Assembly: GCA_964550305.1 (NCBI GenBank)
Contig: CAZJYU010000002.1
Coordinates: 61,620-125,619 of the forward strand
Source: an uncultured Vicinamibacteraceae bacterium
GTDB taxonomy: Bacteria > Acidobacteriota > Vicinamibacteria > Vicinamibacterales > UBA8438
DNA length: 64,000 nt
Direction of reading: 5' to 3'
Shown here: positions 22,226 to 58,769 of the stretch, piece after piece
How positions within the stretch are numbered: position 1 is the first letter of the stretch
Layout: every line of letters begins with the position of its first letter
The notes under the pieces: model-generated
Databases searched by the model: none
What the model was told of the DNA's origin: nothing
Seen by the model: only the letters and a program-made list of their open reading frames with translations
Made by a program: the position numbers and the translations under genes

Positions 22226-24017
22226 GGATCGCATAGGCGGGCAGCCCGATCGCCTCGAGCCGTTCCATCACCTCGCGCGCCGGCGAGGCATTCAGATCTT
22301 CCGCCTGAAACTTCACCTTGACGTAGCCCTCCAGTGCGTTCTGGACACCCTCGGCCTTGAGCGTGGTGCTGTCCATCGTCAGGCAGTTCTTGCACCAGGT
22401 GGCCCAGATGTCGAGCAGGACCGGCTTGCCTTCCGCTTCCGCCGCCACCAGGCCGAGGTCGAGCGAGGGGTACCACCCCTCGGCAATCAGCTCCTGCACG
22501 CTCTCGGCGACGAGATCCGGATCGACCCAGCGCTGGCTGAACAACCCGTACGACAGGTAGCCGTAATAGATCGCCGTTCCCAGGATGAAGACTCCGAACG
22601 CCTGCTTGACACGCACCATCCACGGGCCGGGCTTCGGCAGCGCCGTCAGCCCGGCGCCGGCGATCGGCCAGGGGATCGCCATGCCCACTCCGAGGACAAA
22701 GGGCAGCGCGAGGGCCAGAGTGACGCCCGTGCCGTACAGGTTGCTCGAGAAGACAATCACTTGAATGACGACCGGCGCGACGCAAGCGCCGGCGAGCAGC
22801 GCGGCGATCGCACCCATGCCGAAGGCCAGCAGGAACGTTCCCCGCCCTGAGCCTCCGCCGGGCAGGCGGCTCTGCAGGCTGGAGAAGTCGATGGTCAGGA
22901 CGTCGAACATTGCCAGCCCCAGCACCACAAACAGCAGCGCGATGCCGAGGTTGAACCAGGGCGAAGCGTTGATGGTGCCGAAGGTCCCCGCGGTGAGGAT
23001 CACGGCCAGCCCGAGACCGCCGTAGACCACCGCCATCGCCGTGCCGTACGCGCTTCCGAGAGCGAAGCCGCGCCAGCGCGACGAGGCACGGGCGCCGGCA
23101 CCGATGATCGCCAGGTTGATCGGGATCATCGGCAGGACGCACGGCGTCAGATTGAGCGCCAGCCCGCCCACCAGGATCAGCGCCAGAATCGCGAGCGGGC
23201 CGCGGCCCTCGAACCATCCCGCTTCCGCTTCGCCGGTCTCGGAGCGGCGTATGAACTCGAGGAACTGCTCCTCGTCAAGGTACCCGCCGGCCGTGGCGAG
23301 CAGGTCGAACCGGCCGAATCGGGCGAGCGCCGCTGCCCCGTCCGGCGGCGGGGCGCCATCCGCCACGGTGGGTGCAGTTGCTGCGGGAGGTGCTGGGACG
23401 GTCGGCGGATCGGTGAAGCGCATGTCCGCAAACAACGCCGCCTGTGCGGTCGGCGCGGGCGTGGCGTCAGCCGGGGCGACGCGCACCGGAAGGGTCACCG
23501 CGGCCGTAGCCGGGATGTAGCACATACGCTCGTCGCATGCCTGATAGCGCAGGGTGCCGGGAACGACGTAGTCACCCGGCGGAAGGTCGGCATCGAGCGC
23601 GAACGCGGCGCCGATGACGAACTGCTCCTCGAAGACCGCAAGTGGGTTTTCCGCCCCCTGTTGCTCCAGCAGAATCGGTTCCGGCCATGCGAGGCCGTCG
23701 AGCGTGATCCCTGCCGGAGGGTCAAGTGTCAGGACCGTCGGGATCAGGAAGTCCTCGAGCGGCGCCTCGGAGTTGACGTGGAGACCGCGGCCGGAGGGCG
23801 TAAGGCGTGCATCGAGCGCGGAGCGGTGGGTCGAACCGGCCAGCGCGACGTCGGTCTCGCTCACGGCTGCCAGTTCGATACCGATCGGCACCGGTTGTGC
23901 GGCGACCGGCCTCGGGGCCGCCGCAGTGAACGCAGCCACCCCGGTGGCGAGCACCGATATCGCTCTCGCGCGCCGCCAACCACGCGATGTGAGCCCCATC
24001 AATCCTGCCCGGATCAT
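22149..24017 (-). CDS. Thiol:disulfide interchange protein, DsbD-like
   Basis: N-terminal periplasmic domain with YQACDERMCY, a central DsbD transmembrane core (LTPCVLPMIPINLAII) and a C-terminal thioredoxin domain (DIWATWCKNC). The start is uncertain: ATG 24017 is given, and the track start GTG 24110 is the maximal ORF. Confidence 0.85.
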   Translation of the reverse strand: MIRAGLMGLTSRGWRRARAISVLATGVAAFTAAAPRPVAAQPVPIGIELAAVSETDVALAGSTHRSALDARLTPSGRGLHVNSEAPLEDFLIPTVLTLDPPAGITLDGLAWPEPILLEQQGAENPLAVFEEQFVIGAAFALDADLPPGDYVVPGTLRYQACDERMCYIPATAAVTLPVRVAPADATPAPTAQAALFADMRFTDPPTVPAPPAATAPTVADGAPPPDGAAALARFGRFDLLATAGGYLDEEQFLEFIRRSETGEAEAGWFEGRGPLAILALILVGGLALNLTPCVLPMIPINLAIIGAGARASSRWRGFALGSAYGTAMAVVYGGLGLAVILTAGTFGTINASPWFNLGIALLFVVLGLAMFDVLTIDFSSLQSRLPGGGSGRGTFLLAFGMGAIAALLAGACVAPVVIQVIVFSSNLYGTGVTLALALPFVLGVGMAIPWPIAGAGLTALPKPGPWMVRVKQAFGVFILGTAIYYGYLSYGLFSQRWVDPDLVAESVQELIAEGWYPSLDLGLVAAEAEGKPVLLDIWATWCKNCLTMDSTTLKAEGVQNALEGYVKVKFQAEDLNASPAREVMERLEAIGLPAYAILRPGLEPPQALQQAAPAPAAAATTD

Positions 24018-24113
24018 ATCAGCGCTACCTGCCCGTCGTGCGTGCGAAACACACCCCTCCGGTCCGGCGCCGGCCTCGCGGGCGGGACGCCATCGGGGCT
24101 GCCGCCGCACCGA

Positions 24114-42165: not shown

Positions 42166-42738
42166 CTATTGGCCGAGCCCCCGGTAGACGACTCCCAGTT
42201 GCAAGCGGGTCTGGCCGAACGGTGCTGCCGCGTGCACACGCCGATAGTCGACGCCGGCCCGAATCGCCAACGGCGCGTTGGGGATCAGCACATCCACGCC
42301 GCCCCCAACCTGCCAGGCCGCGTGGAGCTCGCGGAAGCGGCCGCTCGTCATGAACACCCGGTCGGCAACCGCGGCGGTCTCGATGCGCGAGCCCCCGGCG
42401 AACGCCTGCGCGAAGGGCTGCAGGAATCCGGCGTCCACGCCGACGCGCCCTCCCGCCATCGCCTGCAGAAACTCGACACTCACCGCGAGCAGGCCAACAT
42501 CCCGGGCGAGCCGGTTGATCCCCGCCTCGAAGGCAAGCGTCAGCGGTCCCGCCACACGCCATCCCACCCCGATCAGCGCGCCCGTGCCACGCCCGTCGAC
42601 AATTCCGCCACCCTCCAGCCGCGTGATCCCCCCGGCTACCTCCAGGCGCACATCGGCTTCCTGCGCCGCCGCCGCGCAGGGGGCCATCCACAGGCAGACT
42701 ACGAACGCCAGCCGGGGGGCGCCGGAGCGGATCGGCAT
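42166..42738 (-). CDS. Small outer-membrane beta-barrel protein (OmpW/OmpX-size)
   Basis: Signal peptide ending AAAAQE. Alternating hydrophobic beta-strand pattern rich in Gly/Ala/Val with aromatic residues at strand ends. 190 aa. Confidence 0.6.
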   Translation of the reverse strand: MPIRSGAPRLAFVVCLWMAPCAAAAQEADVRLEVAGGITRLEGGGIVDGRGTGALIGVGWRVAGPLTLAFEAGINRLARDVGLLAVSVEFLQAMAGGRVGVDAGFLQPFAQAFAGGSRIETAAVADRVFMTSGRFRELHAAWQVGGGVDVLIPNAPLAIRAGVDYRRVHAAAPFGQTRLQLGVVYRGLGQ

Positions 42739-42741
42739 CGG

Positions 42742-43929
42742 TCAGAGGGCGCGCAGCGCCGTGGCGACGGGAAGGCGGGCGGCGCGGATGGCGGGGAACA
42801 GGCCGCCGACGAAGCCCATGGTTACGGCGATCAGCACACCTTGCAGCGTCAGAGCCGGCGTCACCATGAAGGCGAACGCCACCTGGCTGAAGGTCTGCCA
42901 GTTGATCGTCGACGTCTGAAAGTTGTCGAACGCGAAGTAAGCGAGCATGCCGCCGATGATGCCGCCTGCCGCGCTCAACAGGACCGATTCGATCATCACC
43001 GAAATGACGACCGGGAGGCTCGAGAAGCCGAGGGCGCGCAGCGTTGCGATCTCGCGGCTCCGTGTTGCGACTGCGGTGTACATCGTGTTGATGGCGCCGA
43101 AGACGGCGCCGATTCCCATGAGGATGGCGACCAGCGTGCCGATGCCGGTGATGATGCCGGTGATCAACTCCGACTGCCCAGCGTAGTAGTCGGTCTCGCG
43201 CTCCACCATCACGTCAAGCCGGGGGTCGGCCGTGAGCGCATCCCTGAAGGTGTCGAAGCTTTCTGCTGACTCCAGTCTCGCGTAGACCGATTGCACCGTG
43301 TCGCCTCGGCGGTAGGCGGGAGCGAGAACGCGCGCGTCGCACCAGATCTCAGACTCGGCGACAGTGCCGTCCGCCTCGAAGATCCCAACGACCTGCCACG
43401 CGTTCTCTCCCCAGCGCTGTGTCGCACCCAGGTCGATGCCGGCGAACTGCGCGACGGCCGCCCGGCCCGCGATGATCTCGTTCGTGCCCGGACGAAACGC
43501 GCGACCCTCCACAATCCGCACCTCGCCGCGGATGTCGAACGCGGCGGGCTCGACGCCGCGCAGCGGTACGTTGGCGCTCGTACCGGTGCTGCGTTTGGGC
43601 ACGTCCACGACCACGAACAGCTCGGCGGAAGCGACCGGTCCGCGTTCGGTCCGCTGCACGCCGGGGGCGTCCTTGATGATGCGGCTGCTGTCCAGATCGA
43701 AGGCGCTGCTCAGTTCGGTGTCGCTTCCGCCCCGCATGACGATCGCCGTGTCAGGGGAGCCCGCCCCGAGCATTGCGGCGCGGAATCCCTCGGCGATGGA
43801 CAGGACGGCGACGAAGACGACGACCACGCCGGTGATTCCCACGACGGCGACGGTCGACGAGCCGGCGCGCTGAGGGATCGTCCGGATCGTCAGGGCCGTG
43901 ACTGCCGCCACCTGGGCCAGTAGTCGCAT
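42742..43929 (-). CDS. ABC transporter permease, FtsX/MacB type
   Basis: N-terminal TM, a large periplasmic domain, and a C-terminal 3-TM FtsX domain (REIATLRALGFS...). Confidence 0.88.
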   Translation of the reverse strand: MRLLAQVAAVTALTIRTIPQRAGSSTVAVVGITGVVVVFVAVLSIAEGFRAAMLGAGSPDTAIVMRGGSDTELSSAFDLDSSRIIKDAPGVQRTERGPVASAELFVVVDVPKRSTGTSANVPLRGVEPAAFDIRGEVRIVEGRAFRPGTNEIIAGRAAVAQFAGIDLGATQRWGENAWQVVGIFEADGTVAESEIWCDARVLAPAYRRGDTVQSVYARLESAESFDTFRDALTADPRLDVMVERETDYYAGQSELITGIITGIGTLVAILMGIGAVFGAINTMYTAVATRSREIATLRALGFSSLPVVISVMIESVLLSAAGGIIGGMLAYFAFDNFQTSTINWQTFSQVAFAFMVTPALTLQGVLIAVTMGFVGGLFPAIRAARLPVATALRAL

Positions 43930-43942
43930 GGACGGGATCCGC

Positions 43943-45091
43943 CTATGTCTTTCGGAGCGCGGTGACGATTCTGAGCCGCGTTGCCTGCACGCCGGGCAGG
44001 ATGCCGGTGGCCAGTCCGAGCAGGAGGGTCAGCCCGACACCGACCAGCCAGTCCCCGGACGGCACGCCGAACACCGGCAAGAAGCCGCCGGTCGGGTCTC
44101 CCAGGTTGGTCAGCAGGAAGCCGAGCCCAAGTCCGATCGCGCCTCCCGCCACCGCCAGCGCCATGGACTCTAGCAGCACCAGCAGCAGGACCTTCCGGTC
44201 CGTGAAGCCCAGCGTCTTCAGCACTGCCAGCTCGCTCGTTCGCTCGCGGATGGCCTGCGCCATCGTGTTGGCCGCGATCACCAGGATCGTAAAGAAGACC
44301 GCGCTCAGAATGGCCGTGAGAATGGCGCCGATGTTGCCCACCTGATCGGCGAAGCCCTGCAGGAACGCTTCCTCGGTCGTGGTCTTCGTTTCCGCCGGGG
44401 AGTTGGCGAAGCGGGCGTCCACTGCTGCCGCCACGTCCACGGCGCGGGCCGGATCGTCTACGCGGATAACGAACTGCCCGATCTGACGGTAGGCGTCATT
44501 GGTCTCCGCCAGATAGTCGTAGTGGAAGTACATGGTCGACGTGTCGTACCCCTCCTCGCCGGCTTCGTAGATGCCGTCGATGGTGAACTCCCAGGGGGCG
44601 TCGTCCGGCGTGCGAAAGATAGTGCCCTGCAGCGGGATCCGGTCACCCACTTCGAATCCGAACCGGTCGGCGGTGGCGCGTCCAAGGATGGCGCCAGTCC
44701 GGTTGCCGACCCAGCGTTCCCGCTCTTCGGCCGTGAGCACGATCTCCGGGTAGAGCCGCAGGTAGCTCTCGGGGTCGACCGCGAACTGCGCGAAAAAGTT
44801 GCGCGGATCCTGGTAGATGCCGCCGAACCACTGTGCGAAGCTCAGATCCGCCACGCCGTCGATCGACGCGATCCGTCCCCGATAGCTCTCCGGCATCGGC
44901 TGAATGAGCGACACCTTGTGAATCACGAGCAGGCGGTCGGCGCCCGCCACCGAAACTCCACCGCTGAATGCCTGGCGGACCGCCATGAGGTATGCGAACA
45001 GCACGAAGGCGACGACGATCGATCCAACGGTAAAGAACGTTCGCACCTTCCGCCGGAACAGGTTCTTCCAGACGAGCGGCAGGTACTTCAT
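43943..45091 (-). CDS. ABC transporter permease, FtsX/MacB type
   Basis: Same architecture as the neighbouring permease (TSELAVLKTLGFT...). The start overlaps the ATPase stop (ATGA). Confidence 0.88.
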   Translation of the reverse strand: MKYLPLVWKNLFRRKVRTFFTVGSIVVAFVLFAYLMAVRQAFSGGVSVAGADRLLVIHKVSLIQPMPESYRGRIASIDGVADLSFAQWFGGIYQDPRNFFAQFAVDPESYLRLYPEIVLTAEERERWVGNRTGAILGRATADRFGFEVGDRIPLQGTIFRTPDDAPWEFTIDGIYEAGEEGYDTSTMYFHYDYLAETNDAYRQIGQFVIRVDDPARAVDVAAAVDARFANSPAETKTTTEEAFLQGFADQVGNIGAILTAILSAVFFTILVIAANTMAQAIRERTSELAVLKTLGFTDRKVLLLVLLESMALAVAGGAIGLGLGFLLTNLGDPTGGFLPVFGVPSGDWLVGVGLTLLLGLATGILPGVQATRLRIVTALRKT

Positions 45092-45783
45092 GCAACCGGT
45101 TCCGTCGAGAGCGCGCCCTTGTTCAGGAAGAGCGTGCGCCGGGCGCGGGCCGCGGCCCGCGCGTCGTGCGTCACCATGACGATCGTCTTGCCATGCTCGC
45201 GGTTGAGCGCCTCTAGCAGATCGAGGATCTCGTCGCCCGACTTCCGGTCAAGGTCGCCGGTCGGCTCGTCGCATAGCAGCAGCGTCGGGTCGGTCACGAT
45301 GGCGCGCGCGATGCCGACCCGCTGTTCCTGGCCGCCCGAGAGTTGCCGCGGATAGTGCTTCGCCCGATCGGACAGCCCGACCACCTCGAGCGCCGTCGCC
45401 ACGTGCTTTCTCCGTTCGGCGCGCGCGAGCGGGGTCAGCAGCAGCGGCAACTCGACATTGCGCTCGGCGGTCAGGACCGGCAGAAGGTTATAGAACTGAA
45501 AGACGAAACCGATATGCCGCGCGCGCCAGCGGGCGAGCTTGCCTCCCGACATCCGGTCGATCCGGTCACCGCCGACAACAACCGAACCGTCCGTCGGCGT
45601 GTCAAGGCCGCCCAGCAGGTTGAGCAGCGTGGTCTTTCCTGACCCCGAAGGGCCCATCAGGGCGAGGAAGTCGCCCTCCGGCATCTCCAGGCTCAGCCCC
45701 TGCAGGACATCGATCCGTTCCGATCCCCGCCGGAACTCCTTGTGCAGGTCTCGAACCGCGACCAATGCGCCGTTATCGCTCAT
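45088..45783 (-). CDS. ABC transporter ATP-binding protein (MacB/LolD-type)
   Basis: Walker A GPSGSGKTT, signature LSGGQEQR, Walker B LLLCDEPTGDLD. Confidence 0.93.
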   Translation of the reverse strand: MSDNGALVAVRDLHKEFRRGSERIDVLQGLSLEMPEGDFLALMGPSGSGKTTLLNLLGGLDTPTDGSVVVGGDRIDRMSGGKLARWRARHIGFVFQFYNLLPVLTAERNVELPLLLTPLARAERRKHVATALEVVGLSDRAKHYPRQLSGGQEQRVGIARAIVTDPTLLLCDEPTGDLDRKSGDEILDLLEALNREHGKTIVMVTHDARAAARARRTLFLNKGALSTEPVA

Positions 45784-45820
45784 GGTGCGATAGCCTCCAG
45801 GCCGGCACGTCCTCTTCCAC

Positions 45821-47044
45821 CTACGCCGTCGTCACCCGATCCCCACCCGCCAACTCCGCCGGCGGATCCACTACCACCCGGTCACCGGGGGTAACCCCGG
45901 ACAACACTTCGATCTCGTCGCCATCCTCGATCCCGAGCGTCACCGCCCGGCGCTCCACAGTTTCTCCCCGCAGGAGGAAGATCGCCTGCGCTTCGCCCTC
46001 ATCCCGAACCGCCGCGGCCGGAATCCAGAGCCGCGGCCGGGCGTCGGGATCATCGACGGTTACCGGCGTTCCCACTTGGAGGAACGCAACGTTCACCCCC
46101 ATGTCGGGCAGGATTCTCGGGTCGCCCAGCTCGTCGAATGCAATCCGCACCAGCACCGTCGCCCGCTGCCGGTCCGCCGCCGGAATCGTGGTGATGACTG
46201 ACGCCGGGATATCCCATTCCGGGTAGGCGTCCAGATTGGCCACGACTCGCTGCCCTGGCTCGACCCGGCCGATGTAACTCTCGTTCACGTCCACTTCAAT
46301 CTCGAGCGACGACATGTCGACCAGCGTACAAATCCCGGTTCGCGTAAACCCTCCTCCCGCGCTGACTGGCGAAATCATCTCTCCGGGCTGCGCATCCTTC
46401 GAGATGGCCACACCGCCGAACGGCGCGCGGATTACCATGTCATCCAGCGCCGTGCGCTGCAGATCGATCTGACGTTCCGCCACGACGATCTGTTCCCGCT
46501 GATTCGCGATTCGCGCCTGCAGCGAGTCCGCCTCCGCCCGGGATGTGTCGAACTCCGCCTGCCCAATGATCCCTTGCTCGAGCAGCCGCTCGCGCCGCCC
46601 GAGGTCGAGCATGGCCTCGTTGTAGCGCACGTCCATCTCAGCCAGCGCACCGCGCGCCGCCTGCAACTGCGCCTCGCTCAGCGCCAGGCGCGACCGTTCA
46701 ACCGAGTCATCCAGCTTGGCCAGCACCTGTCCCTCGCGAACGGACATCCCCTCTTCGACCAGCACCTCGGCAATGCGCCCGGTCACCTTGGAGGAAACGG
46801 TCGACTGCAGCCGCGCCGTTACGTACCCGGAGGCGTTCAGAACCGTCGGCTGCCCGTCTCCGGCGACCGTCTGCCGGACCGCGGCCGTCCGCACGACCGG
46901 GACCTGCGATGCGTCCCACCACCGCCACGCCGCCATGCCGCCGGCGCCGGCGATCGCTACCGCACCGAGTACACCCGTCACCGGCCCTATCCAGTTAGAC
47001 CGACGCCGCGACCGGTCAATCCTGAGATCGTCGAGGGATGCCAT
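45821..47044 (-). CDS. Efflux transporter periplasmic adaptor subunit (HlyD/MacA family)
   Basis: N-terminal TM anchor, lipoyl-like and coiled-coil hairpin regions, and beta-barrel and membrane-proximal domains. Start set at ATG 47044 (MASLDDLRIDRS...). The rest of the 632-aa track ORF is Arg-rich and antisense to a better ORF. Confidence 0.85.
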   Translation of the reverse strand: MASLDDLRIDRSRRRSNWIGPVTGVLGAVAIAGAGGMAAWRWWDASQVPVVRTAAVRQTVAGDGQPTVLNASGYVTARLQSTVSSKVTGRIAEVLVEEGMSVREGQVLAKLDDSVERSRLALSEAQLQAARGALAEMDVRYNEAMLDLGRRERLLEQGIIGQAEFDTSRAEADSLQARIANQREQIVVAERQIDLQRTALDDMVIRAPFGGVAISKDAQPGEMISPVSAGGGFTRTGICTLVDMSSLEIEVDVNESYIGRVEPGQRVVANLDAYPEWDIPASVITTIPAADRQRATVLVRIAFDELGDPRILPDMGVNVAFLQVGTPVTVDDPDARPRLWIPAAAVRDEGEAQAIFLLRGETVERRAVTLGIEDGDEIEVLSGVTPGDRVVVDPPAELAGGDRVTTA

Positions 47045-47170: not shown

Positions 47171-47671
47171 ATGTCGAGGAAATACCTTCAGCGCGGATAC
47201 CAGGAAGGCGCACGCGAACCGTCCGACCGCGTACCGGATCGCGATCGCCGGCCGAAGGGTGACGGCCGCCCGCGGCGCGGCTATGGATCCCGCGAGCCCC
47301 GCACGATCAACATGCCGGCGTTCCATGAGGTGATGAAGTGCGACCGCTGCGGGCAGTCGCTCGACTCCACCTCCATCCGGTTCGATGCGCAATGCGAGGG
47401 CTGCGGCGCCGACCTTCACAGTTGCGCCCAGTGCACCTGGTTCGACACGAGCCAGACGCTGGAGTGCGCTCAGCCGATCACGAAGCGGGTCTCGCCGAAG
47501 GACCGGCGGAACGACTGCACCTATTTCGAGCCACGTGTCACCGTAGAACGGGAAACGCATTCCCGGGTGGCGCCCGCGCCTGCGTATCCCGACGAGGGAG
47601 GGCCGTCGTCGTCGGAGCCGTCCCCCGATGCGGCCAGCGCGCGGCAGGCGTTCAACGACCTGTTCAAGTAG
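47171..47671 (+). CDS. Hypothetical zinc-ribbon protein
   Basis: CDRCG...CEGCG...CAQC...C cysteine pairs preceded by a basic Arg/Asp-rich N-terminus. GC3-rich codons. The stop TAG shares its last base with the next gene's GTG. Confidence 0.6.
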   Translation: MSRKYLQRGYQEGAREPSDRVPDRDRRPKGDGRPRRGYGSREPRTINMPAFHEVMKCDRCGQSLDSTSIRFDAQCEGCGADLHSCAQCTWFDTSQTLECAQPITKRVSPKDRRNDCTYFEPRVTVERETHSRVAPAPAYPDEGGPSSSEPSPDAASARQAFNDLFK

Positions 47672-48342
47672 TGGATTTCGCAGGCCCGTCCTACGGTCTC
47701 GAGTCGCGCCTCGGCGCACTTGCCGCGCCGGTTCGGTTGGCCTTCTTCACGCAGACGTTCGGGTGCGACAGTTGCCTGGCGGCGCGGCAGGTGGTTGACC
47801 GCATTGCCGCTGCCTCCGATCAGGTGACGGTGGTGGAGCACAACCTGGTGCTGGACCGCGAACCGGTAGAGGCGTACGGTGTCGACCGGGCGCCTGCGCT
47901 CGCCGTGGTGGGCGGCGCGGGCGGGGTCGGTGATCTGGGCATACGCTATTACGGTGTCCCCGCCGGCTTCGAGGTGGAATCGATCGTCGAAGCGATCGAA
48001 CTCGTGGCGGCGGGCGGTCCTGCGGCCGTGCAGGCCGGCAAGGCGGCGTTGAGCGAGGACACACTCGACGCGGTGGACGCACTCGACCGCGACGTCCACC
48101 TGCGCGTCTTCGTTACTCCCACCTGACGGTTCTGTCCCCAGGCGGTCAGCCTGGCCTGGCGTCTGGCGGCAGCGAGTCCGAGAATCACCGCCACGGTGAT
48201 CGAAGCCACCGAGTTCCCCGACCTCGCGCAGCAGTACCGCGTCACCGGCGTGCCGAAGACGGTGGTGGACGGCGCCATCGAGATCGTCGGCGCGCTCCCC
48301 GAAGCGGAATTCGTGGCCCAGGCCCTCGGCGCCGGCGCGTAG
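47671..48342 (+). CDS. Glutaredoxin-like protein disulfide oxidoreductase (PfPDO family), candidate selenoprotein with in-frame UGA (Sec) at codon 152
   Basis: Two thioredoxin-fold units. The first has FGCDSCLAARQV, DRAPALAV and RYYGVPAGFE. The second reads VFVTPT-TGA-RFCPQAV...IEATEFPDLAQQYRVTGVPKTVV. TGA at 48124-48126. The frame stays open and codon-biased to TAG 48340-48342. Confidence 0.7.
48138..48154 (+). promoter_or_regulatory. SECIS-like hairpin CCAGGC-GGUCA-GCCUGG
   Basis: A perfect 6-bp GC stem with a 5-nt GGUCA loop. The stem starts 11 nt after the UGA, and the loop GGU falls at +18 to +20. Confidence 0.5.
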
Positions 48343-48369
48343 TCCGGAAGCTGCGGCTATCATCGCTTC

Positions 48370-50706
48370 ATGGCAGTCGCGACGCGCGACCCCGTCTGCG
48401 GCATGACGGTGGATCCGGAGAAGTCCGGATTCTCGTGGGAGTACGGCGGCACGACCTACCATTTCTGTTGCGGCGGCTGTCACGCCGCGTTCCAGACGGA
48501 TCCCGAGGCCTTCCTGAAGGTCGCCGGCCCGCCGGCGACCACGGACCCTGCGCCCATGGCCACCAGGACGGCTGCGCCGACGGCGCCGGCCGGTACCGTG
48601 TACGTCTGTCCGATGTGTCCGGACGTCCGCGAAACCGAGCCGCGCCCTTGTCCCAGTTGCGGGATGGCGCTCCAGCCGCTCACGGTGACGCGGGACGAGG
48701 GACCCGATCTCGAACTGAACGAGATGACGCGCCGGTTCTGGATCGCGGCGGCGGTCGGTTTTCCGGTGTTCGCGCTGGCGATGACCGAGATGGTGGCTGG
48801 CCCCGGCGGGCTGCCGGTTTCCCGGACGGTCTCGAACTGGCTGCAACTCGTTTGCGCAACTCCGATCGTCCTGTGGGCAGGCCGTCCCTTCTTCGAACGT
48901 GCCTGGACGTCGGTGGTGAACCGCAGCCCGAACATGTTCACGCTGATCGCCCTCGGTGTGGGCGCGGCGTTCCTCTACAGCGCGGCCGCCACCATCGCTC
49001 CCGGCGCCTTCCCGGACGGTTTTCGGATGAACGGCGGCGTCGAACCGTACTTCGATACTGCGGTAGTGATCGTGGTCCTCGTGCTGCTGGGTCAGGTGCT
49101 CGAACTGCGGGCGCGCCACCGGACCGGCGCGGCGCTGCGGGCGCTGCTCGATCTCGCGCCGCCGGTCGCGCGCCGGATGACACCCGGCGCCGACGTCGAG
49201 GAGGAAGTACCCCTGGCCGAGGTCCGGGTGGGAGACATCCTGCGCGTGCGGCCGGGCGACCGGATCCCGGTGGACGGCGTCGTCACCGACGGGCGCAGTG
49301 CGGTCGATGAGTCGATGATCAGCGGCGAACCCATTCCGATCGAGAAGGACGTCGGTTCGCCGGTGGTGGGCGCTACCGTGAACGGCACCGGCAGCCTGTT
49401 GATGCGTGCGGAGCGGGTCGGGAGCGATACCCTGCTCGCCCGAATCGTCCAGATGGTGTCGGACGCCCAGCGCAGCCGCGCCCCGATTCAGCGCGTCGCA
49501 GACCGGGTGGCCGGCGTCTTCGTGCCGACTGTCGTCACGGTGGCGGCCCTCGCGTTCGTCGCCTGGTCCCTCGTCGGCCCCGAACCGCGTCTTGCTCTCG
49601 CGCTGCTGAGCGCCGTCGCGGTCCTGATCATCGCGTGTCCCTGCGCGCTCGGGCTTGCCACGCCGATGGCCATCATGGTCGGCACCGGCCGGGGCGCCAC
49701 TGCGGGCGTGCTGATCCGCGACGCCGAGGCGCTCGAGACGCTGGAGCGGGTCGACACACTGGTCGTCGACAAGACCGGCACATTGACGGAGGGCCGACCG
49801 CGCGTGGAGACGGTTGCCGGACGGCTTGCGGAAAGCGAGCTGCTGCGTCTGGCGGCGGGTCTCGAACGTACGAGCGAGCATCCGCTCGCGGCGGCCATCG
49901 TCAAGGCGGCGGAGCAGTGTGGCGCGGTAGCGGCGGCGGCTTCGGGCTTCGAATACCAGCCGGGCCGGGGCGTTAGCGGAAACGTGGAGGGCCAGCAGCT
50001 CGCGATCGGGACAGCGGCGTTTCTGGAGGAGCGCGGTGTCGACGTGGCGGCGCTGGCGGCCGATGCGGAGGAGGCCCGCGAGCGCGGCGAGACCGTCGTG
50101 TTCGTGGCCGTGAACGATCGGGCGGCGGGGATCATCGGAGTGGTCGATCCGGTGAGGGATACCGCGGCCGAAGCGGTGGCCATGCTGCGCGCGGAGGGCA
50201 TCCGCGTCGTCATGGCGACGGGCGACAACCGCGTGACGGCGGAGGCGGTGGCGGCCCGCGTGGGCATCGATACGCGCGAAGTCCATGCCGACGCCCTGCC
50301 GGCGGACAAGCGGCGGATCGTGGCGGATGAACAGGCGGCAGAGCAGGTCGTGGCAATGGCCGGCGACGGTATTAACGACGCGCCCGCGCTGGCTGAGGCA
50401 GCAGTCGGGATCGCGATGGGTACCGGGACGGAAGTCGCGATGGAGAGCGCCGGGGTCACGCTGGTGCGCGGCGACCTGCGCGGTATCGTGAGGGCGCGAC
50501 GGCTCAGCCGCGCGACGATGCGCAACGTCCGGCAGAATCTGTTCCTCGCGTTCGCGTACAACGGTGTCGGAGTACCGGTGGCGGCAGGCGTGCTCTATCC
50601 CGTAATCGGATTGCTCATCAGTCCGATCTGGGCGAGCGCGGCGATGACGATGAGCTCACTTTCGGTGATTGGGAACGCGCTGCGCTTGCGGCGCGTGGCG
50701 TTGTAG
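48370..50706 (+). CDS. Heavy-metal translocating P1B-type ATPase, copper-type, with N-terminal YHS/TRASH and CPMCP...CPSCGM metal-binding domains
   Basis: DPVCGMTVD...YHFCCGGC (YHS/TRASH), YVCPMCPDV...[13 protein letters not shown] motif ([13 protein letters not shown]), DKTGTLT phosphorylation site, GDGINDAP hinge. Confidence 0.93.
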
Positions 50707-51141: not shown

Positions 51142-52751
51142 CGGAAGAGGACTCCCGGGGCCAGCACGCCGTCTGGATCGAGCGCCGCCTTGACGGCGCG
51201 CATCTCGTTGATGCCGGCGTCGCCGTACAACTGCCTCAGCAGTGCCTGCTTCACCGCGTTCCGTCCGACGCCATGTTCCGCCAGCGGTGATCCGCCCAGG
51301 CGGACAATCCTGCGGCCACACTCCAGGAGTGCCTCGCGGCCCCGCGTCACATCGTCGAGTGTACGCGGGATCACGTTAGGGTGCACGTTGCCGTCGGAAA
51401 TGTGCCCCCAGATGGCGTAATCGAGGTTGCGTGCGCCAAACGCGCTGCGAAACAGGGCGAGGCTCTCCGCAAACCGGTCGAACGGAACGATCATGTCCGC
51501 GGCCGTCTTCGAGATCGACGTGCCCGTCCGCCGTTTCGCTTCCCCGACGCGCCGGTTCACGCCCTCCGGAGCGGCTTCTCGCAGGGCAAGGAGAGCTGCT
51601 TGCCGCCGCGTGTCGCCTGGCAGCACGATCTCCGTACGGTCGAGCGCGCCGGCTTCCGCGAGCACACGGCAGAGGCGAACCAGCGGCCGGTCGGGCGCGT
51701 CGGCCGCCAACGCTCCGGCGATTTCCCCGTAAGCGGACGCCGGGTCAGAGGCGGCGGAATCACCTGGCACTTCCAACTGCGCGATCAGCGCCGCGGCCGC
51801 GTCGTCCGGCAAGTCGACGCCCAGGCGCTGCGGGGCGCCATCCTCGCGCGTTATCGCGAGGCTCCGCGCGTCGAGATGCTCAATCGCCGCTATGTCGACT
51901 CCCTCGGCGCCGTCACTCGCCCGGCAGGCCAGGCCCGTGTCGCGCAAGCAGCCCGCGAGCGCTATCGCTGCCGCCTCGGTGGCAACGGGGATCCACAGCA
52001 CCCCGCGGCGAGGCGCCGGCGTGATGACCGCGAACGTGATGTCCGTGATCACGCCGAGCGTGCCCTCCGAGCCGATGAACAGATCGATCAAGTCCATTTC
52101 CGGTTCGGCGAAGTAGCCGGCGGAACACTTCACAACGTTCGGCATTCGGTAGGTGGGCACCGGGACACGCCGGACGCCGCCCGCGGACTCGACCTCGAAC
52201 CATCCTTCGATATGCGCGGTCGTCTGGCCTCGCCTTATGTCGAGCACGTCACCGGACGCGAGGACGACAGTCAGCCCCCGCACCCAGTCGCGCGTCGTGC
52301 CGTACTTGAAGGTAGCGGCCCCCGCCGCGTTCGTCGCGACGACGCCTCCCGCGAACGCGCCGTCAAAAGTCGGCGCCGGCGGATAGAACGCATCACCTCG
52401 CGCCAGGGCCGCCTGCAGGGTTGCGATCGGGACGCCCGCCTCGACGGTGATCGCATCGCCGCCGAGGCGGCCAATCCGGTCGAATCGCTGCATGTCGACC
52501 ACGACCTCACCCATTGGTGTAGCCCCGCCCGTGAGAGACGACTGCGCGCCAATCGGCAGGATGCGTGCGCCGCTGGCGACCAGCGCCGCCACGTCCGCCT
52601 CCGAGGCGGGGCGGGCGATGCCCGCCGCATGTCCGCCGGGAAAGTGCGCGGCATCCTCGAGGTGCACGGCCACCGACTCGTTGTCGGTGCGGATCACGGT
52701 CTCGCCCGCCAGCCCGCGCGCCGCGCGCGTCCGGATTCGGTGGTCAGGCAT
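51138..52751 (-). CDS. FAD-linked oxidase (GlcD/D-lactate dehydrogenase-like)
   Basis: FAD_binding_4-like ILPIGAQSSLTGGATP and a C-terminal FAD-oxidase domain ending HGVGRNAVKQ. The start is ATG 52751, or alternatively 52772. The rest of the track ORF is Pro/Arg-rich. Confidence 0.85.
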   Translation of the reverse strand: MPDHRIRTRAARGLAGETVIRTDNESVAVHLEDAAHFPGGHAAGIARPASEADVAALVASGARILPIGAQSSLTGGATPMGEVVVDMQRFDRIGRLGGDAITVEAGVPIATLQAALARGDAFYPPAPTFDGAFAGGVVATNAAGAATFKYGTTRDWVRGLTVVLASGDVLDIRRGQTTAHIEGWFEVESAGGVRRVPVPTYRMPNVVKCSAGYFAEPEMDLIDLFIGSEGTLGVITDITFAVITPAPRRGVLWIPVATEAAAIALAGCLRDTGLACRASDGAEGVDIAAIEHLDARSLAITREDGAPQRLGVDLPDDAAAALIAQLEVPGDSAASDPASAYGEIAGALAADAPDRPLVRLCRVLAEAGALDRTEIVLPGDTRRQAALLALREAAPEGVNRRVGEAKRRTGTSISKTAADMIVPFDRFAESLALFRSAFGARNLDYAIWGHISDGNVHPNVIPRTLDDVTRGREALLECGRRIVRLGGSPLAEHGVGRNAVKQALLRQLYGDAGINEMRAVKAALDPDGVLAPGVLFR

Positions 52752-52807
52752 CGGGCCGGCATTATCCCGCATGGACGCGGGTGTGGCCGGGGTGTACAGT
52801 CGGACCC

Positions 52808-53869
52808 ATGACGCATGCACTCCGGCGGCGCACGCGCGGACCGGCGTGCGCGCTGACGATGGCGGTGGCTTTCCTGCTCGCGGCCGGCGGCTCGATGGCG
52901 CGTGCGCAACAGGCGGATGACGACGTGGTTGCACGCATCGGCGACATCGAGGTGACGTTCGGTGAGCTGGAGGCGGCGTGGCAGCAGAACGACGCGGCGT
53001 CGCGCCTTCGGATGTTGCAGGACCTGTACGAAACGCGGCGTCGCGCGCTGGATATTCTGGTCGGCGACCGGCTGATCGACCGCGAGGCGCAGGCACGCGG
53101 CATGACCCGGGACGAACTGCTCATCACGGAGCTGCCCAGCCGGACGCTGGAGGTGACGGAGGAGGAGATTCAGTTGATTTGGGAACGGAACCGGGAGCGT
53201 TTCCCGGACCAGACCCTGGAGGATTTCCGGCCCGAGATCGTTGCTGCCATTGAGCGGCAGCGGCCGATGCAGGCGTTGCACGCCTACACGAACGAGCTGC
53301 GCGAAGCGGCAGGCGACATCGACGTGTTGCTCGCACCCCCCCGGCAGCAGATCGACGTGCTGCCCCAGGATCCCGTGCGCGGCCCGGCCGATGCACCTAT
53401 CGAGATCGTGGAGTTCTCGGACTTCGACTGTCCTTTCTGCCAGCGCGCGACCGAGACGATCGACCGGCTGCTCGAGGACTTTGCCGGCCAGATCCGTTTC
53501 ATCTACAAGGACTACCCGCTGCCGACGCACCCGGACGCGTTCAAGGCGGCCGAGGCGGGCAACTGCGCGCACGAACAGGACCGTTTCTGGGAGTTGCACG
53601 ACACGATGTTCGCGAATCAGGGAGCCCTCGGCATCGACGAGCTGCACGCCTACGCCGAGAGCATCGGCCTGGATACCGAGGCGTTCGCCGAGTGTCTGGA
53701 CAGCGGGCGCCATGCCGCCAGCGTCGAGCGGGACGTGGCCATCGGCAACGGCTACGGCGTCCAGTCCACGCCGACCCTCTTTGTCAACGGCCGGTCTGTC
53801 ATCGGCGCCGCACCGTACGAGACCTTCGTCGAGATCATCCGCGAGGAACTGGCCGCCGCCGAGCGGTAG
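52808..53869 (+). CDS. DsbA-family thiol:disulfide oxidoreductase with N-terminal SurA-N-like chaperone region
   Basis: Signal peptide, a helical N-terminal region, then the thioredoxin domain FSDFDCPFCQRA...STPTLFVNG. Confidence 0.85.
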   Translation: MTHALRRRTRGPACALTMAVAFLLAAGGSMARAQQADDDVVARIGDIEVTFGELEAAWQQNDAASRLRMLQDLYETRRRALDILVGDRLIDREAQARGMTRDELLITELPSRTLEVTEEEIQLIWERNRERFPDQTLEDFRPEIVAAIERQRPMQALHAYTNELREAAGDIDVLLAPPRQQIDVLPQDPVRGPADAPIEIVEFSDFDCPFCQRATETIDRLLEDFAGQIRFIYKDYPLPTHPDAFKAAEAGNCAHEQDRFWELHDTMFANQGALGIDELHAYAESIGLDTEAFAECLDSGRHAASVERDVAIGNGYGVQSTPTLFVNGRSVIGAAPYETFVEIIREELAAAER

Positions 53870-54309: not shown

Positions 54310-54597
54310 ATGAGAACACTAACCGACGCAGCGGGTGTGCTGGCGTTCATGAAGCGTATCGGACAGGGATCGCGGGGCCCGGGTCGCGTCTATCTGGTGG
54401 GGGGAAGTTCAGCAGTTCTGATGGGGTGGCGGGCGACGACGATCGATATCGACGTCAAGCTCGATCCGGAGCCGGAAGGAGCATGGACCGCAGCCGCTTC
54501 ATCGAGCGTTACGGAGAGCTTCCTTCGCGCGTGCGTTGGAACGGCTCAACGGATGCGCGGGCGGGGCAGCTCGCGCGACGACGAACAACAGCCGTGA
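54310..54597 (+). pseudogene. Possible remnant of a DUF6036/MNT-type nucleotidyltransferase gene
   Basis: The first ~56 codons (GRVYLVGGSSAVLMGWRATTIDIDVKLDPEPEG) look like the N-terminal half of a minimal nucleotidyltransferase. The frame then becomes nonsense. A C-terminal-like piece (DRSRFIERYGELPS) appears in the frame of track ORF 54426..54830. Confidence 0.35.
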
Positions 54598-54603
54598 TGG
54601 GGG

Positions 54604-55350
54604 TCAGTTGCCGGTCAGCAACGACGCCTCTTCCGCGAGCCAGGCCTCGTAGTCGGCTTCCGTCATCACGCTCGCGAAGCCGCGCATGCGGTAATGGCCG
54701 AGGCCGCAGAGCTGGGAACAGTTCACCTCGTAATCGCCCACCTCGGTCGGCACCCACCAGACCGGCACCTGGATGCCGGGGACCGCATCCTGTTTCACGC
54801 GCATCTCGGCAATGGCGAAACTGTGGATGACGTCCTGCGACGACAGGTAGACGATGATCGGCTTGTCGACCGGCATGTTCAACTGGTTGACGGTGACGAT
54901 GTCGTCGGCGCCGTTCGGAGAGTTCCGATCGAGGCCGATCACGTTGGTGGGAGTGGTCAGGCTGATGTCGCGCAACCCGAAACGGCCGTCCGCGCCGGGG
55001 TAGTGCGAAACCCACTCGAACTGCTTGGAAATCAGATTGACGACGGTTGCTTCGCCTTCCGGCGGGATGTCGTTGACGCGGTGCGCCCACGCCGGGATGG
55101 CGAAGCCGACGAGCAGGACCGCCTCGATGGCCGCCACCGCCCACTCCAGGTAGGTGGAGGTGTGGCTGGTGACCCCGGTGTAGTCGGCCTTCGGGTTCGC
55201 GCTCGCGCGGAACCGGAACAGCGTGTAAACGTAAAAGGCTCCCCACCCGACGAACAGCACCGCCATCAGGTAGTGGATGAGGATGATCATCTGATCGATC
55301 TCGCCGGCGTGAGCCGACGCCTGGCTTGGCAGTCCGAGCAACTCGCCCAT
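54604..55350 (-). CDS. coxB: Cytochrome c oxidase subunit II (CuA subunit, no fused cytochrome c)
   Basis: Two N-terminal TM helices and a cupredoxin domain with VIHSF...CSQLCGLGHYRM (CuA ligands H, C, C, H, M). Confidence 0.9.
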   Translation of the reverse strand: MGELLGLPSQASAHAGEIDQMIILIHYLMAVLFVGWGAFYVYTLFRFRASANPKADYTGVTSHTSTYLEWAVAAIEAVLLVGFAIPAWAHRVNDIPPEGEATVVNLISKQFEWVSHYPGADGRFGLRDISLTTPTNVIGLDRNSPNGADDIVTVNQLNMPVDKPIIVYLSSQDVIHSFAIAEMRVKQDAVPGIQVPVWWVPTEVGDYEVNCSQLCGLGHYRMRGFASVMTEADYEAWLAEEASLLTGN

Positions 55351-55629
55351 CTACGAAATCCCTCCCGCATCGCCGCGGTCGTCCCTGGCGTCGAATGCGT
55401 CGTCGTTCCCGAGCGCTTGCCGGGACCGTTTCAGCAAATGAAAGATAAAGCCCACGAAGCCGCTCAGCACGCCGCCGGTGACGCCGAGCAGCGTGAACAC
55501 CGCCCAGTTCAGGCTCTGCGCTTCGGCAGAGTCCGGATCACCGCCGAAGCAGATGGGACAGGCCCACGCCACTGCGGGCGCGAGCGTGACGAGCGCGGTC
55601 GTCATCATCGCCGTCGTGAGTTTCGTCAT
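55351..55629 (-). CDS. Small membrane protein with periplasmic CPICFG motif
   Basis: Signal/anchor MTKLTTAMMTTALVTLAPAVAWA, then CPICFGG and a TM (WAVFTLLGVTGGVLSGFVGFIFHLL). GGAGGG RBS. The stop TAG directly abuts the coxB ATG. Confidence 0.55.
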   Translation of the reverse strand: MTKLTTAMMTTALVTLAPAVAWACPICFGGDPDSAEAQSLNWAVFTLLGVTGGVLSGFVGFIFHLLKRSRQALGNDDAFDARDDRGDAGGIS

Positions 55630-55649
55630 GGCAACACCCTCCGGGAGAT

Positions 55650-55859
55650 TCAGCGCATCCCGATGGCCCGCGTCTTCCGGACGAACAGCACCGCGTAGAT
55701 CACCATTCCAATCACCGCCGCGAGCGACCCGCCGGCGAACAACAGGTAGCCATTGCCACCTCGCCCCGTCGTGAACATCGCCACGCTCCACCAGGTCATC
55801 AGCGCCGCCAGCAGGATGGAGGCGACGATGAAGACGAGATGAATGGATCGGAGCGACAT
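55650..55859 (-). CDS. Small two-TM hypothetical membrane protein
   Basis: IHLVFIVASILLAALMTWW and LLFAGGSLAAVIGMVIYAVLF. Located inside the cox operon. Weak RBS. Confidence 0.45.
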   Translation of the reverse strand: MSLRSIHLVFIVASILLAALMTWWSVAMFTTGRGGNGYLLFAGGSLAAVIGMVIYAVLFVRKTRAIGMR

Positions 55860-55888
55860 GGGGAGCCCTGGCTCTTGCGTTCGCTTCC

Positions 55889-56233
55889 TCAGTGCTGCGC
55901 CGCCGCGGGCGCCGGCGCATTGGCGTTCGGCACCGTGTAGTACTCGCCCAACCGGTCCGCGTGGCCGAGGAGCGGTAGGAAGATGAGCGCCAGGAAGAAG
56001 ATCACGGTCAGGATCAACGACCAGTAGATCATCTTCCGCTCGCCGATGAGGTGCATGAAGAAGCTGGCCACCAGCGAGCCCTTGGTCCCCGCGATGATCA
56101 GGGCCACGATGACCGCGATCGGCACGCCCCAGAAGTCGACGTAGGACACCGCCACCGTAATTACGGTCAGCACGCCGAGCGCGGCCGCCACCTTCATATA
56201 CGTCCGAATGTGCGCGTGAACGTCTTCACTCAT
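55889..56233 (-). CDS. Cytochrome c oxidase subunit IV (prokaryotic COX4 family)
   Basis: HIRTYMKVAAALGVLTVITV...GTKGSLVASFFMHL pattern. 3 TM segments. Confidence 0.75.
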   Translation of the reverse strand: MSEDVHAHIRTYMKVAAALGVLTVITVAVSYVDFWGVPIAVIVALIIAGTKGSLVASFFMHLIGERKMIYWSLILTVIFFLALIFLPLLGHADRLGEYYTVPNANAPAPAAAQH

Positions 56234-56261
56234 GGGTTCGCTCGTTGTCCTCCGCCGACGC

Positions 56262-56858
56262 CTACAACAGGTAAAGCACCGGAAACAGGAAAATCCATAC
56301 CAGGTCGACGAAGTGCCAATAAAGCCCCGCCGCCTCGATCCGGTTAACGAACTGGGCCTTGTTCGTCTCCCACATCTTCGAGCCGGGGAACAGGAAGTAG
56401 GTGTTGACGATCACGCCGCCGATGATGTGCAGGGCATGCAGTCCGGTCATCGTGAAGTAGATGGCCAGATAGGTGCTCGTCCACGGGAAGTTGCCGAGCT
56501 CGAATTCGTGGTTGTACTCGTACGCCTTGACGGCCATGAAGAGGAGCGACAGGAGGATGGTCGCCCCCATGTACTTCCTGTAGCCGCCCAGGTCATCCAT
56601 CTTGAGCGACGCAAAGGCCATCACCATCGTGACGCTCGACCCGATCAGCACCGCCGTGTTGAAGGTCCCGACCGGAACGTTCAGCACGTCCACGCCGAAC
56701 GGCCACGTGCCCTCCGGCGCCATCAGTCGCAGCAGGACGTAGGAAGAGAAGAGCGCGCCGAAGAGCATTACCTCGGACGCGAGAAAGAGCCAGATACCCA
56801 GCTTGACGTTGGTCAATCCGGTATCCGGCCGTTCATCAACGATGTACGGAATATCCAT
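56262..56858 (-). CDS. coxC: Cytochrome c oxidase subunit III
   Basis: [18 protein letters not shown]..., [14 protein letters not shown] and [13 protein letters not shown]. Confidence 0.9.
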
Positions 56859-56909
56859 GTCTCGACGTGCTGACCTGTGTCCTTTGTTCGTCCGTTCGCG
56901 GGCCTTCCG

Positions 56910-58769
56910 TCAGGAGGTAGCCGGTTCGGCGGCCGCCGGTGCTCCGGATCCGGCGGAATCCGGTTCGCCCTGCATGACGTAGTCGCGCGGCGCGTCAGGC
57001 ACGCTGTATTCGTACGGACCGCGGTACGCCCGCGGCGGCGTGGCGAAGTTCCCGTGCGGTGGCGGCGAAGGCGCCTGCCACTCGAGGGTGGTCGCCTGCC
57101 ACGGGTTGTCACCCACCTTCTCGCCGCGCTTGATGCTGTTGAAGAAGTTGTAAATGAACGGGAGCTGGAACAGGCCGAGCGCCCACGCGCCGATGCTGAT
57201 CACCTCGTTCCAGACCAGGACGTCGGCGTTCATTACGTATTGCTCGCCGCCGTCGTACATCCGGCGGTTCATCCCGGCGAGTCCCTGGATGAACATCGGC
57301 ATGAAGACGACGTTGATGGCCAGGAACGATCCCCAGAAGTGGATGCGCCCCAGGAAGTCGTTCATCTTCCGCCCGGTCGCCTTCGGGAACCAGTAGTAGA
57401 TACCGCCGAACAGCGCCAGCAAGGTGCCGGGCGCCACGACGTAATGGAAGTGGCCGATGACGTAGTAGGTGTCGTGCAGGTGGATGTCCGGCGCCGCCAG
57501 CCCGAGCGGCAGTCCGGTCAGCCCGCCGATGCCGAACATCGGAAGGAATGCCAGGGCGAACAACATCGGCACGGTGAACCGGATGGACCCGCCGTAGAGC
57601 GAGATGAACAGTGACGACAGAATGACCACCGACGGGATCGAGATGATCATCGTCGTCGTCTGGAAGAACGAACTCATGGTCGTGCCCATGCCGGTCAGGA
57701 ACATGTGGTGCGCCCACACGATGAACGACATGAAGCCCAGAAAGACGGCCGAATAGACCAGCACGCTGTAGCCCCAGAGCGGCTTGCGCGTGTTGTTGGC
57801 GACGATGTCGGCGACGATGCCGAGCGCCGGGAGGATCAGGACATACACCTCCGGGTGCGCGAGGAACCAGAACAGGTGCTGCCACAGCAGCACGCTGCCG
57901 CCGCCGCTGACCTCCACCGCGGCATCGGCGTATACGAGGCCGCTCGGCATGAAGAAGCTCGTTCCCGCCACGCGGTCCATCAACTGCAGTACGCCGGCCG
58001 CCTCGAGCGGCGGGAACGCCAGGAGGAGCAGGAAGGCCGTCACGAGCTGCGCCCAGACGAAGTACGGCAGCCGCATGAACGTCAGTCCCGGAGCCCGCAA
58101 CTGGATCGTCGTCACGATGAAGTTGACCGAGCCGAGCAGTGACGACGTGATCAGGAAGATCATGCCGATCAACCACATCGTTTGTCCGGTCGTCGCCAGG
58201 ACGGAAAGCGGGGCATACGAGGTCCATCCGGAGTTGGCTGCCCCACCCGGCACGAAGAAGCTGGCGAACATCACGACGCCACCGACAAAAAAGGACCAGT
58301 AGCTCGCCATGTTGAGCTTCGGGAAGGCCATGTCGGGCGCGCCGATCTGGAGCGGCAGGACGAAGTTGCCGAAACCGCCGACGGCGAGGGGGACGACGCC
58401 GAGGAACACCATGATGGTGCCGTGCATCGCCCCCAACTGGTTGTAGAACTCCGGCAGCATGATGCCGGCCGGCGCCCGCTCGTCACCCAGCCAGGCGCCA
58501 ATCAGCGGGATCGGCTCGCCCGGGTAGGCGATTTGCCACCGCATCACCATCATCAACGCGAAGCCGAAAAGCAGGAAGAGCAGGCCGGTGACGGCGTACT
58601 GGATGCCGATCACCTTGTGGTCGACCGAGAAGACGTAGGTCTGCCAGAACCCGAGCTCGTGGTGCCCGTGGTCGCCGTGGCCGTGCTCGTCGTGCGCGTG
58701 TGCGGCGTCGTGCTGTTCGCCCGCGCCGGGCGCCGGGGCGCCGGTCTCGGTCGTCGTCGCGTCAGCCAA
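56910..58769 (-). CDS. ctaD: Cytochrome c oxidase subunit I
   Basis: Heme-copper oxidase core: HKVIGIQY, GAPDMAFPKLN, HPEVYVLILP and VWAHHMF. TTG start with AGGAG 8 nt upstream. Confidence 0.95.
   Translation of the reverse strand: MADATTTETGAPAPGAGEQHDAAHAHDEHGHGDHGHHELGFWQTYVFSVDHKVIGIQYAVTGLLFLLFGFALMMVMRWQIAYPGEPIPLIGAWLGDERAPAGIMLPEFYNQLGAMHGTIMVFLGVVPLAVGGFGNFVLPLQIGAPDMAFPKLNMASYWSFFVGGVVMFASFFVPGGAANSGWTSYAPLSVLATTGQTMWLIGMIFLITSSLLGSVNFIVTTIQLRAPGLTFMRLPYFVWAQLVTAFLLLLAFPPLEAAGVLQLMDRVAGTSFFMPSGLVYADAAVEVSGGGSVLLWQHLFWFLAHPEVYVLILPALGIVADIVANNTRKPLWGYSVLVYSAVFLGFMSFIVWAHHMFLTGMGTTMSSFFQTTTMIISIPSVVILSSLFISLYGGSIRFTVPMLFALAFLPMFGIGGLTGLPLGLAAPDIHLHDTYYVIGHFHYVVAPGTLLALFGGIYYWFPKATGRKMNDFLGRIHFWGSFLAINVVFMPMFIQGLAGMNRRMYDGGEQYVMNADVLVWNEVISIGAWALGLFQLPFIYNFFNSIKRGEKVGDNPWQATTLEWQAPSPPPHGNFATPPRAYRGPYEYSVPDAPRDYVMQGEPDSAGSGAPAAAEPATS

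Follow-up and report, generated by a model that had tools for sequence, protein, structure and literature searches.

The window considered here, a 64,000-nucleotide stretch of DNA from an uncultured Vicinamibacteraceae bacterium, very probably encodes at positions 47671-48342 of its forward strand a single gene for a cytoplasmic, stand-alone protein disulfide oxidoreductase (PDO) of the type represented by Pyrococcus furiosus PDO (PfPDO), Aquifex PDO and the N-terminal domain of AhpF, with selenocysteine (Sec) at codon 152. A first-pass annotation, made from the letters of the window and its open reading frames (ORFs), had proposed that the TGA at 48124-48126 is read as Sec in a PfPDO-like protein, and this proposal now has comparative evidence behind it: a homologous codon that is TGA in 62 of 80 genomes and a Cys codon in the other 18, a ratio of non-synonymous to synonymous substitution rates (dN/dS) of 0.08-0.26 in the codons that follow, and a hairpin of the selenocysteine insertion sequence (SECIS) type immediately downstream. 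Public annotation of the locus, which consists of a 151-residue hypothetical protein and a 48-residue thioredoxin fragment, is wrong on this account, as it is in dozens of Vicinamibacterales genomes that carry the same error; once the UGA is read as Sec, the oxidoreductase is complete, with both of its sites. The features of the gene are as follows.

47671..48342, forward strand: predicted Sec-PDO gene with GTG start, Sec at residue 152 and TAG stop; 223-residue read-through product
47764..47775, forward strand: N-terminal redox motif C32-D-S-C35 (TGC GAC AGT TGC), which aligns with CESC of Aquifex PDO
48124..48126, forward strand: in-frame UGA, predicted Sec codon, residue 152
48124..48135, forward strand: C-terminal redox motif U152-R-F-C155 (UxxC), where Cys-form homologs have CRFC, CAYC or CPHC
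48138..48154, forward strand: SECIS-type hairpin within the coding sequence, 17 nt (CCAGGC-GGUCA-GCCUGG), 11 nt past the UGA
48340..48342, forward strand: TAG, true stop of the selenoprotein gene by sequence; most relatives use TGA as the true stop here

Reading frame and identity of the read-through product

The frame that opens at GTG 47671 runs to TGA 48124-48126 and then continues for another 71 sense codons, ending at TAG 48340-48342; the first-pass annotation was right that the frame stays open to this TAG, and its count of 72 codons included the stop itself. Its read-through translation (...DVHLRVFVTPT*RFCPQAVSLAWRLAAASPRITATVIEATEFPDLAQQYRVTGVPKTVVDGAIEIVGALPEAEFVAQALGAGA) agrees exactly with ours, the motifs that it assigned to a first thioredoxin-fold unit (PVRLAFFTQTFGCDSCLAARQV, VDRAPALAV and IRYYGVPAGFE) are all present in the upstream half, and the G+C-rich third codon positions (GC3) that it described beyond the TGA are borne out by a GC3 of 0.89. 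The local DNA is 67% G+C and contains many long spurious ORFs, such that an open frame by itself is weak evidence, and the case for read-through therefore rests on homology, codon statistics and the relatives of the gene. A six-frame scan of the window for TGA codons with coding-like sequence on both sides returned two sites, 48124-48126 and 42744 on the minus strand; the latter was rejected as a recoding candidate, being the ordinary stop of a MacB permease gene with the next gene after it.

With Cys substituted for the stop, the product matches the NCBIfam model TIGR02187.2 (PDO_seleno_TRX) at 210 bits, above the curated cutoff of 185, in an alignment that joins residues 10-219 to profile positions 8-207 of 209. 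Neither half reaches the cutoff by itself: the upstream 151 residues cover positions 8-139 at 107 bits and the downstream 71 residues cover positions 142-207 at 82.7 bits (E=2e-23), so the two halves occupy contiguous stretches of one profile. The best matches among solved structures, over residues 16-221, are all PDOs (2ywm, 2ayt, 1j08 of P. horikoshii and 1a8l), with E values from 1e-34 for the two Aquifex aeolicus entries 2ywm and 2ayt to 6e-28 for P. furiosus 1a8l, and Pfam assigns a Thioredoxin_3 domain to the C-terminal unit. Together, the profile score and the full-length structure matches uphold the earlier family call. The product is thus predicted to hold two thioredoxin-fold units in one chain of ~220 residues.

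Alignment to the PDOs of known structure places the UGA at the nucleophilic Cys of the second CxxC, as the first-pass annotation had it; the column is the first Cys of CPYC in PfPDO (1a8l) and of CGYC in Aquifex 2ywm. The PfPDO sequence that the annotation had quoted (VFVTPTCPYCPLAV...EYPEWADQYNVMAVPK) is correct, and the UGA falls on the first Cys of its CPYC. Both Cys residues of the N-terminal site, C32 and C35, are retained without exception in 40 aligned homologs. An identity as AhpF was considered and rejected, in that the protein is a stand-alone chain of 223 residues without the ~300-residue flavin adenine dinucleotide (FAD)/NAD(P)H reductase, and scores 53.8 bits against TIGR03140 (cutoff 502.9); TIGR03143 is likewise far below its cutoff (84.5 vs 687.65).

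Comparative evidence for recoding of the UGA

The comparative set comprises 80 loci, one genome per species, nearly all of them metagenome-assembled genomes of Vicinamibacterales or Acidobacteriota, whose PDOs share 48-89% identity with the window protein. (Two members, L024 and L079, carry the bin labels Alphaproteobacteria and Bifidobacterium; both resemble the Vicinamibacterales type in PDO gene and synteny, and the labels are probably wrong.) At the Sec position the codon is TGA in 62 loci, TGC in 16 and TGT in two, and many database homologs likewise have Cys at this column. All loci keep the next 68-88 codons open and conserved, apart from L076, where a single-base frameshift occurs later. 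Across codons +10 to +70 past the UGA, the dN/dS range given above was obtained against 12 relatives, whereas the two alternative frames of the same region show the opposite pattern, with more "non-synonymous" than "synonymous" change; the codons after the UGA are under purifying selection. Orthologs that terminate here with nothing conserved behind them, which the first-pass annotation had named among the findings that would refute its reading, are accordingly not what the relatives present. UGA has not been globally reassigned in these organisms, since most relatives end the same gene in TGA, 68-88 codons past the Sec-TGA.

Database gene calls illustrate how the locus has been misread. In the closest relatives (76-99% identity) all calls are 149-156 residues long and end in ...VFVTPT, with a separate 48-residue Thioredoxin_3 fragment annotated after the truncated PDO; relatives that share no more than ~59% identity are full-length proteins with Cys (CRFC, CAYC or CPHC) at the Sec position. 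Fitch parsimony on a neighbor-joining tree assigns Sec to the root of the clade, with at least three Sec-to-Cys replacements, and on this sequence-based reconstruction Sec is probably ancestral for this Vicinamibacterales PDO clade, with Cys substituted at least three times.

The SECIS-type hairpin lies immediately after the redox site, its 6-bp stem pairing 48138-48143 with 48149-48154 around the apical loop GGUCA (48144-48148). In an alignment of the 48 nt starting at the UGA in the 62 Sec forms, the hairpin is nearly invariant at nucleotides 15-31 and is the sole consensus structure found by RNAalifold. Standard pairs occupy 96.2% of cells in the Sec forms, a value matched by none of 500 shuffles and well separated from slid controls (5-51%); at the same columns in the 18 Cys forms the figure is 66.7%. 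Compensatory changes include CG to AU in five sequences, where a Gln-to-Lys replacement is matched by a synonymous Leu change (CTG to CTT), and CG to UA in one sequence, and some relatives have a longer stem (GGCC-GUG-GGCC). Synonymous-codon entropy at codons +4 to +9 is 0-0.9 bits in Sec forms vs 1.0-1.8 at comparable four-fold codons elsewhere, a depletion that the Cys forms do not show. The GGUCA loop itself occurs in 53 of the 62 Sec forms vs two of the 18 Cys forms, both of which adjoin a Sec form in the tree.

Folded alone, the hairpin has a minimum free energy (MFE) of -10.8 kcal/mol (z=-3.3). The published bacterial SECIS (bSECIS) model specifies a loop of 3-9 nt, a stem of 4-16 bp, G in the first two loop positions, a UGA-to-loop distance of 16-37 nt and an MFE <= -7.5 kcal/mol (PMC13188914, with its Fig. 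2), and the window hairpin falls inside all four of its constraints (loop 5 nt, stem 6 bp, GG then U, spacing 17 nt, MFE -10.8). The base 3' of the UGA is C in 52 of the Sec forms, A in six, G in four and U in none; UGA-U is the strongest context for release factor 2. As a separate observation, the codon for the resolving Cys (48133-48135 in the window) is TGT in 73% of Sec forms and TGC in 72% of Cys forms, TGC being the bias expected in high-GC DNA; the U at +12 that TGT supplies may be part of the recoding context.

We hypothesize that the hairpin would be bound by the SelB-GTP-Sec-tRNA(Sec) complex, that SelB would bring Sec to the A site in place of release factor 2, and that translation would then proceed through the 71 codons to TAG, a sequence of steps drawn from the anatomy of the hairpin and the known biology of SelB. 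The resulting protein would combine an N-terminal CDSC with a C-terminal URFC site, in which a selenolate at the N-terminal end of the active-site helix would attack substrate disulfides; the selenylsulfide formed would be resolved by Cys155, and the site re-reduced by an enzyme of the thioredoxin-reductase type, as described for archaeal and Aquifex PDOs. Domain scans of the window genes showed no thioredoxin reductase gene in the window.

Several points weigh against this account. The catalytic cycle and redox partner are ones we infer from family membership alone, and the presence of selenium in the protein is a prediction. Folded as a single sequence, the 67 nt after the UGA are no stabler than shuffles (z=-0.03) and their MFE structure differs from the conserved core, the 17-nt hairpin having emerged only through comparative analysis; a SECIS-type signal, which the first-pass annotation had suggested looking for in 48124-48190, is hence present as a 17-nt core inside the bSECIS limits and absent as a stable fold of the whole stretch. 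Rfam returned no matches at gathering thresholds across the whole window, and a permissive scan of 48050-48400 gave chance-level matches only (E above 2). Covariation is modest, with double changes in two of six pairs, because the stem is nearly invariant. A subclade of Cys forms (L045, L050, L052, L061, L063 and L064) keeps a 5-bp hairpin, CAGAC-GGUCG-GUCUG, at ~15-31 nt past the Cys codon, with a GC-to-AU double change relative to Sec forms; it may be a relic in decay or a structure retained for some other reason, and part of the pairing in general could arise from codon or amino-acid constraint or be a relic. Finally, searches of the 64-kb window and ~0.6 Mb of related loci turned up neither selA, selB, selD nor tRNA-Sec: ARAGORN detected no tRNA-Sec in the window or the fetched loci, Pfam scans of ~40 window genes gave no SelA, SelB or SelD, and tblastn with E. 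coli SelD and SelB found nothing in ~0.66 Mb. This lack is uninformative, because sel genes need not be linked to the genes that they serve; at the phylum level, Acidobacteria are reported to contain selenoproteins (PMC1794560).

The absence of Sec machinery from the window and fetched loci also bears on the idea that the UGA is recoded by other means, through a SelC*-type tRNA-Cys opal suppressor acting with a SelB-like factor or through an allo-tRNA, which would make residue 152 Cys or another amino acid. Such molecules have precedent, in that tRNA-Sec-like tRNA-Cys species have been reported as possible opal suppressors and allo-tRNAs of Acidobacteria as possible missense or nonsense suppressors (PMC5389517); however, the same source places selC* in anaerobic Firmicutes, Thermodesulfobacteria, Nitrospirae and Proteobacteria, not in Acidobacteria. 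Moreover, the site is the classical Sec/Cys position of a family known to use Sec, an fdhF-like hairpin of the SelB type is conserved beside it, and a costly recoding to Cys in 62 species offers no obvious benefit with TGC one mutation away, which together leave this explanation improbable.

Still less credence attaches to the TGA being a genuine stop, whether of a 151-residue single-site protein followed by a small thioredoxin-like ORF from GTG 48196 or of a pseudogene. True stops in these genomes are most often TGA, and automated gene callers do report 151 residues plus the 48-residue Thioredoxin_3 fragment, but the 23 codons between the TGA and GTG 48196, which hold the resolving Cys and CPQAVSLA, encode conserved protein sequence in every one of the 80 genomes, the sequence beyond is under the dN/dS constraint described above, neither half reaches the TIGR02187 cutoff, and the split would fall exactly at the catalytic Cys column and be kept in 62 species down to 48% identity. 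An error of sequencing or assembly that made TGA from TGC or TGT has in its favor the single-base distance and nothing else; it is excluded for the assembly because four metagenome assemblies made independently from 96.5%-identical strains share this TGA, and with TGA in 62 different genomes, complete long-read chromosomes among them, it is effectively refuted and has a negligible probability. Selenocysteine thus remains, with high confidence, our reading of the UGA at 48124.

Genomic neighborhood and host

The following features surround the PDO gene.

47171..47671, forward strand: 166-residue Cys-rich protein, whose TAG stop overlaps the PDO GTG by 1 nt (TAGTG)
48370..50706, forward strand: CopA-type copper-exporting P1B ATPase with N-terminal YHS/TRASH and HMBD domains, 27 nt past the PDO stop
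42166-46978, reverse strand: MacAB-type efflux set, divergent from the PDO operon
52565-53866, forward strand: SurA_N plus DsbA/Thioredoxin_4 protein with a CPFC site, from domain matches
54604-58769, reverse strand: aa3-type cytochrome c oxidase cluster (COX2, COX4_pro, COX3, COX1)
22149-24110, reverse strand: DsbD-type membrane thiol-disulfide transporter (DsbD_TM plus Thioredoxin_7), ~24 kb upstream

The closest association is with the Cys-rich gene, which is probably co-translated with the PDO gene in one operon because the TAG and GTG overlap by 1 nt. In its product, a basic N-terminus that is probably disordered is joined to a Cys-rich core (CxxC...CxxC...CxxC); the protein may be zinc-ribbon-like and matches no Pfam or NCBIfam model; ~150 homologs exist in 5.8 billion proteins, all named hypothetical. 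A homolog lies directly upstream of the PDO in 78 of the 80 loci, Sec and Cys forms alike, and the protein is identical on two contigs of 96.5%-identical strains. We regard it as a candidate partner or substrate of the PDO. A CopA homolog is found within 3 kb downstream of the PDO in 47 of the 80 loci, immediately adjacent in some and ~2 kb away with one gene between in others. The divergent efflux set consists of an outer-membrane beta-barrel, two MacB/FtsX permeases, an ATP-binding cassette ATPase and an HlyD/CusB-like membrane fusion protein, the last of which recurs upstream in roughly half of the related loci.

Farther downstream, the SurA_N/DsbA-like protein scores 111 bits against NF041057 ('Rcas_1661 family thioredoxin-like (seleno)lipoprotein', cutoff 190) and may represent a Cys-containing relative of a different known selenoprotein family; in related strains, its counterpart is called with a later start (336 residues). 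Between this region and the oxidase cluster, at 54485-54523, the 96.5%-identical relatives L082-L084 have ~600 extra nt where the window has ~40 nt. The DsbD-type transporter is another thiol-redox component near the PDO. The aa3 oxidase cluster indicates aerobic respiration in the host, and reviews describe selenoproteins as rarely retained by aerobes. Taken as a whole, the neighborhood suggests a role for the PDO in thiol or metal (copper) stress in a respiring organism.

Comparison with known systems

The family is not a new one. Passages of PMC13188914 and PMC9312934 list it among the high-confidence predicted prokaryotic UxxC selenoproteins, credited to Kryukov and Gladyshev 2004; Zhang et al. 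recorded it for Carboxydothermus hydrogenoformans and Symbiobacterium thermophilum in 2006 (PMC1794560), and the name of the NCBI model, PDO_seleno_TRX, already includes "seleno". The remark in the first-pass annotation that a two-domain PDO was not known to its author as a described selenoprotein therefore does not hold as a claim of novelty: the selenoprotein call is correct and well supported, but adds a further member to a known family rather than a new category. What appears to be new is the host lineage, the near-universal Sec form across Vicinamibacterales and the conserved pairing with the Cys-rich protein; no publication that connects Vicinamibacterales to selenocysteine came up in a literature search. 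The order is abundant in soil, its genomes, including the one from which the window comes, carry the aerobic respiratory genes of aa3 cytochrome c oxidase, and one of its conserved redox enzymes appears to require selenium. We advance only as a doubtful proposal that the Sec-PDO is both ancestral and dominant across Vicinamibacterales and forms a fixed module with the 166-residue Cys-rich protein and often CopA; if true, this would constitute a selenium-dependent system for thiol and copper stress in an abundant soil order whose lineage, according to reviews, rarely retains selenoproteins.

Among recoding signals, the nearest likeness is the mini-SECIS of E. coli fdhF (whose sequence, searched against 5,419 E. 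coli genomes, matched at 100% inside fdhF). Both hairpins are 17 nt long, occupy nucleotides 15-31 from the U of the UGA after an 11-nt spacer, carry GGUC in the apical loop and have C after the UGA. Unlike the fdhF element, the window hairpin has a perfect 6-bp stem, a 5-nt loop and no bulged U, and no extended lower helix is conserved; its binding by SelB is predicted. A SECIS this compact, with fdhF-like geometry, is a candidate for cross-species recognition by SelB.

At the protein level, the PDOs of known structure (1a8l, 1j08, 2ayt and 2ywm) align over their full length with the window protein, likewise have two thioredoxin-fold units with a CxxC-type site in each, and share the C-terminal context VFVTPT-C/U-xxCP; they differ in having Cys at that position, hyperthermophilic hosts and an N-terminal CQYC or CESC, whereas the window protein has Sec and CDSC. 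The N-terminal domain of AhpF (1zyn and 1hyu; E=1e-8 to 1e-7) also combines a double thioredoxin fold with a redox-active CxxC in the second unit, but AhpF has a fused FAD/NADH reductase module that the window protein lacks, and no ahpC is adjacent to the window gene.

Known Sec-containing members of the family, such as ABB15282.1 of C. hydrogenoformans, share with the window protein the TIGR02187 assignment, a single Sec in UxxC, a stand-alone two-unit architecture and Cys homologs, a likeness drawn from published description; the Sec of ABB15282.1 may lie in the same, C-terminal unit. The described Sec examples belong to anaerobic or microaerophilic thermophiles, whereas the host of the window gene is a member of Vicinamibacterales (Acidobacteriota) with aa3 cytochrome oxidase genes; also unlike those examples, Sec is here the majority state in the order (62 of 80 genomes), and the enzyme is paired with a Cys-rich protein and often with CopA.

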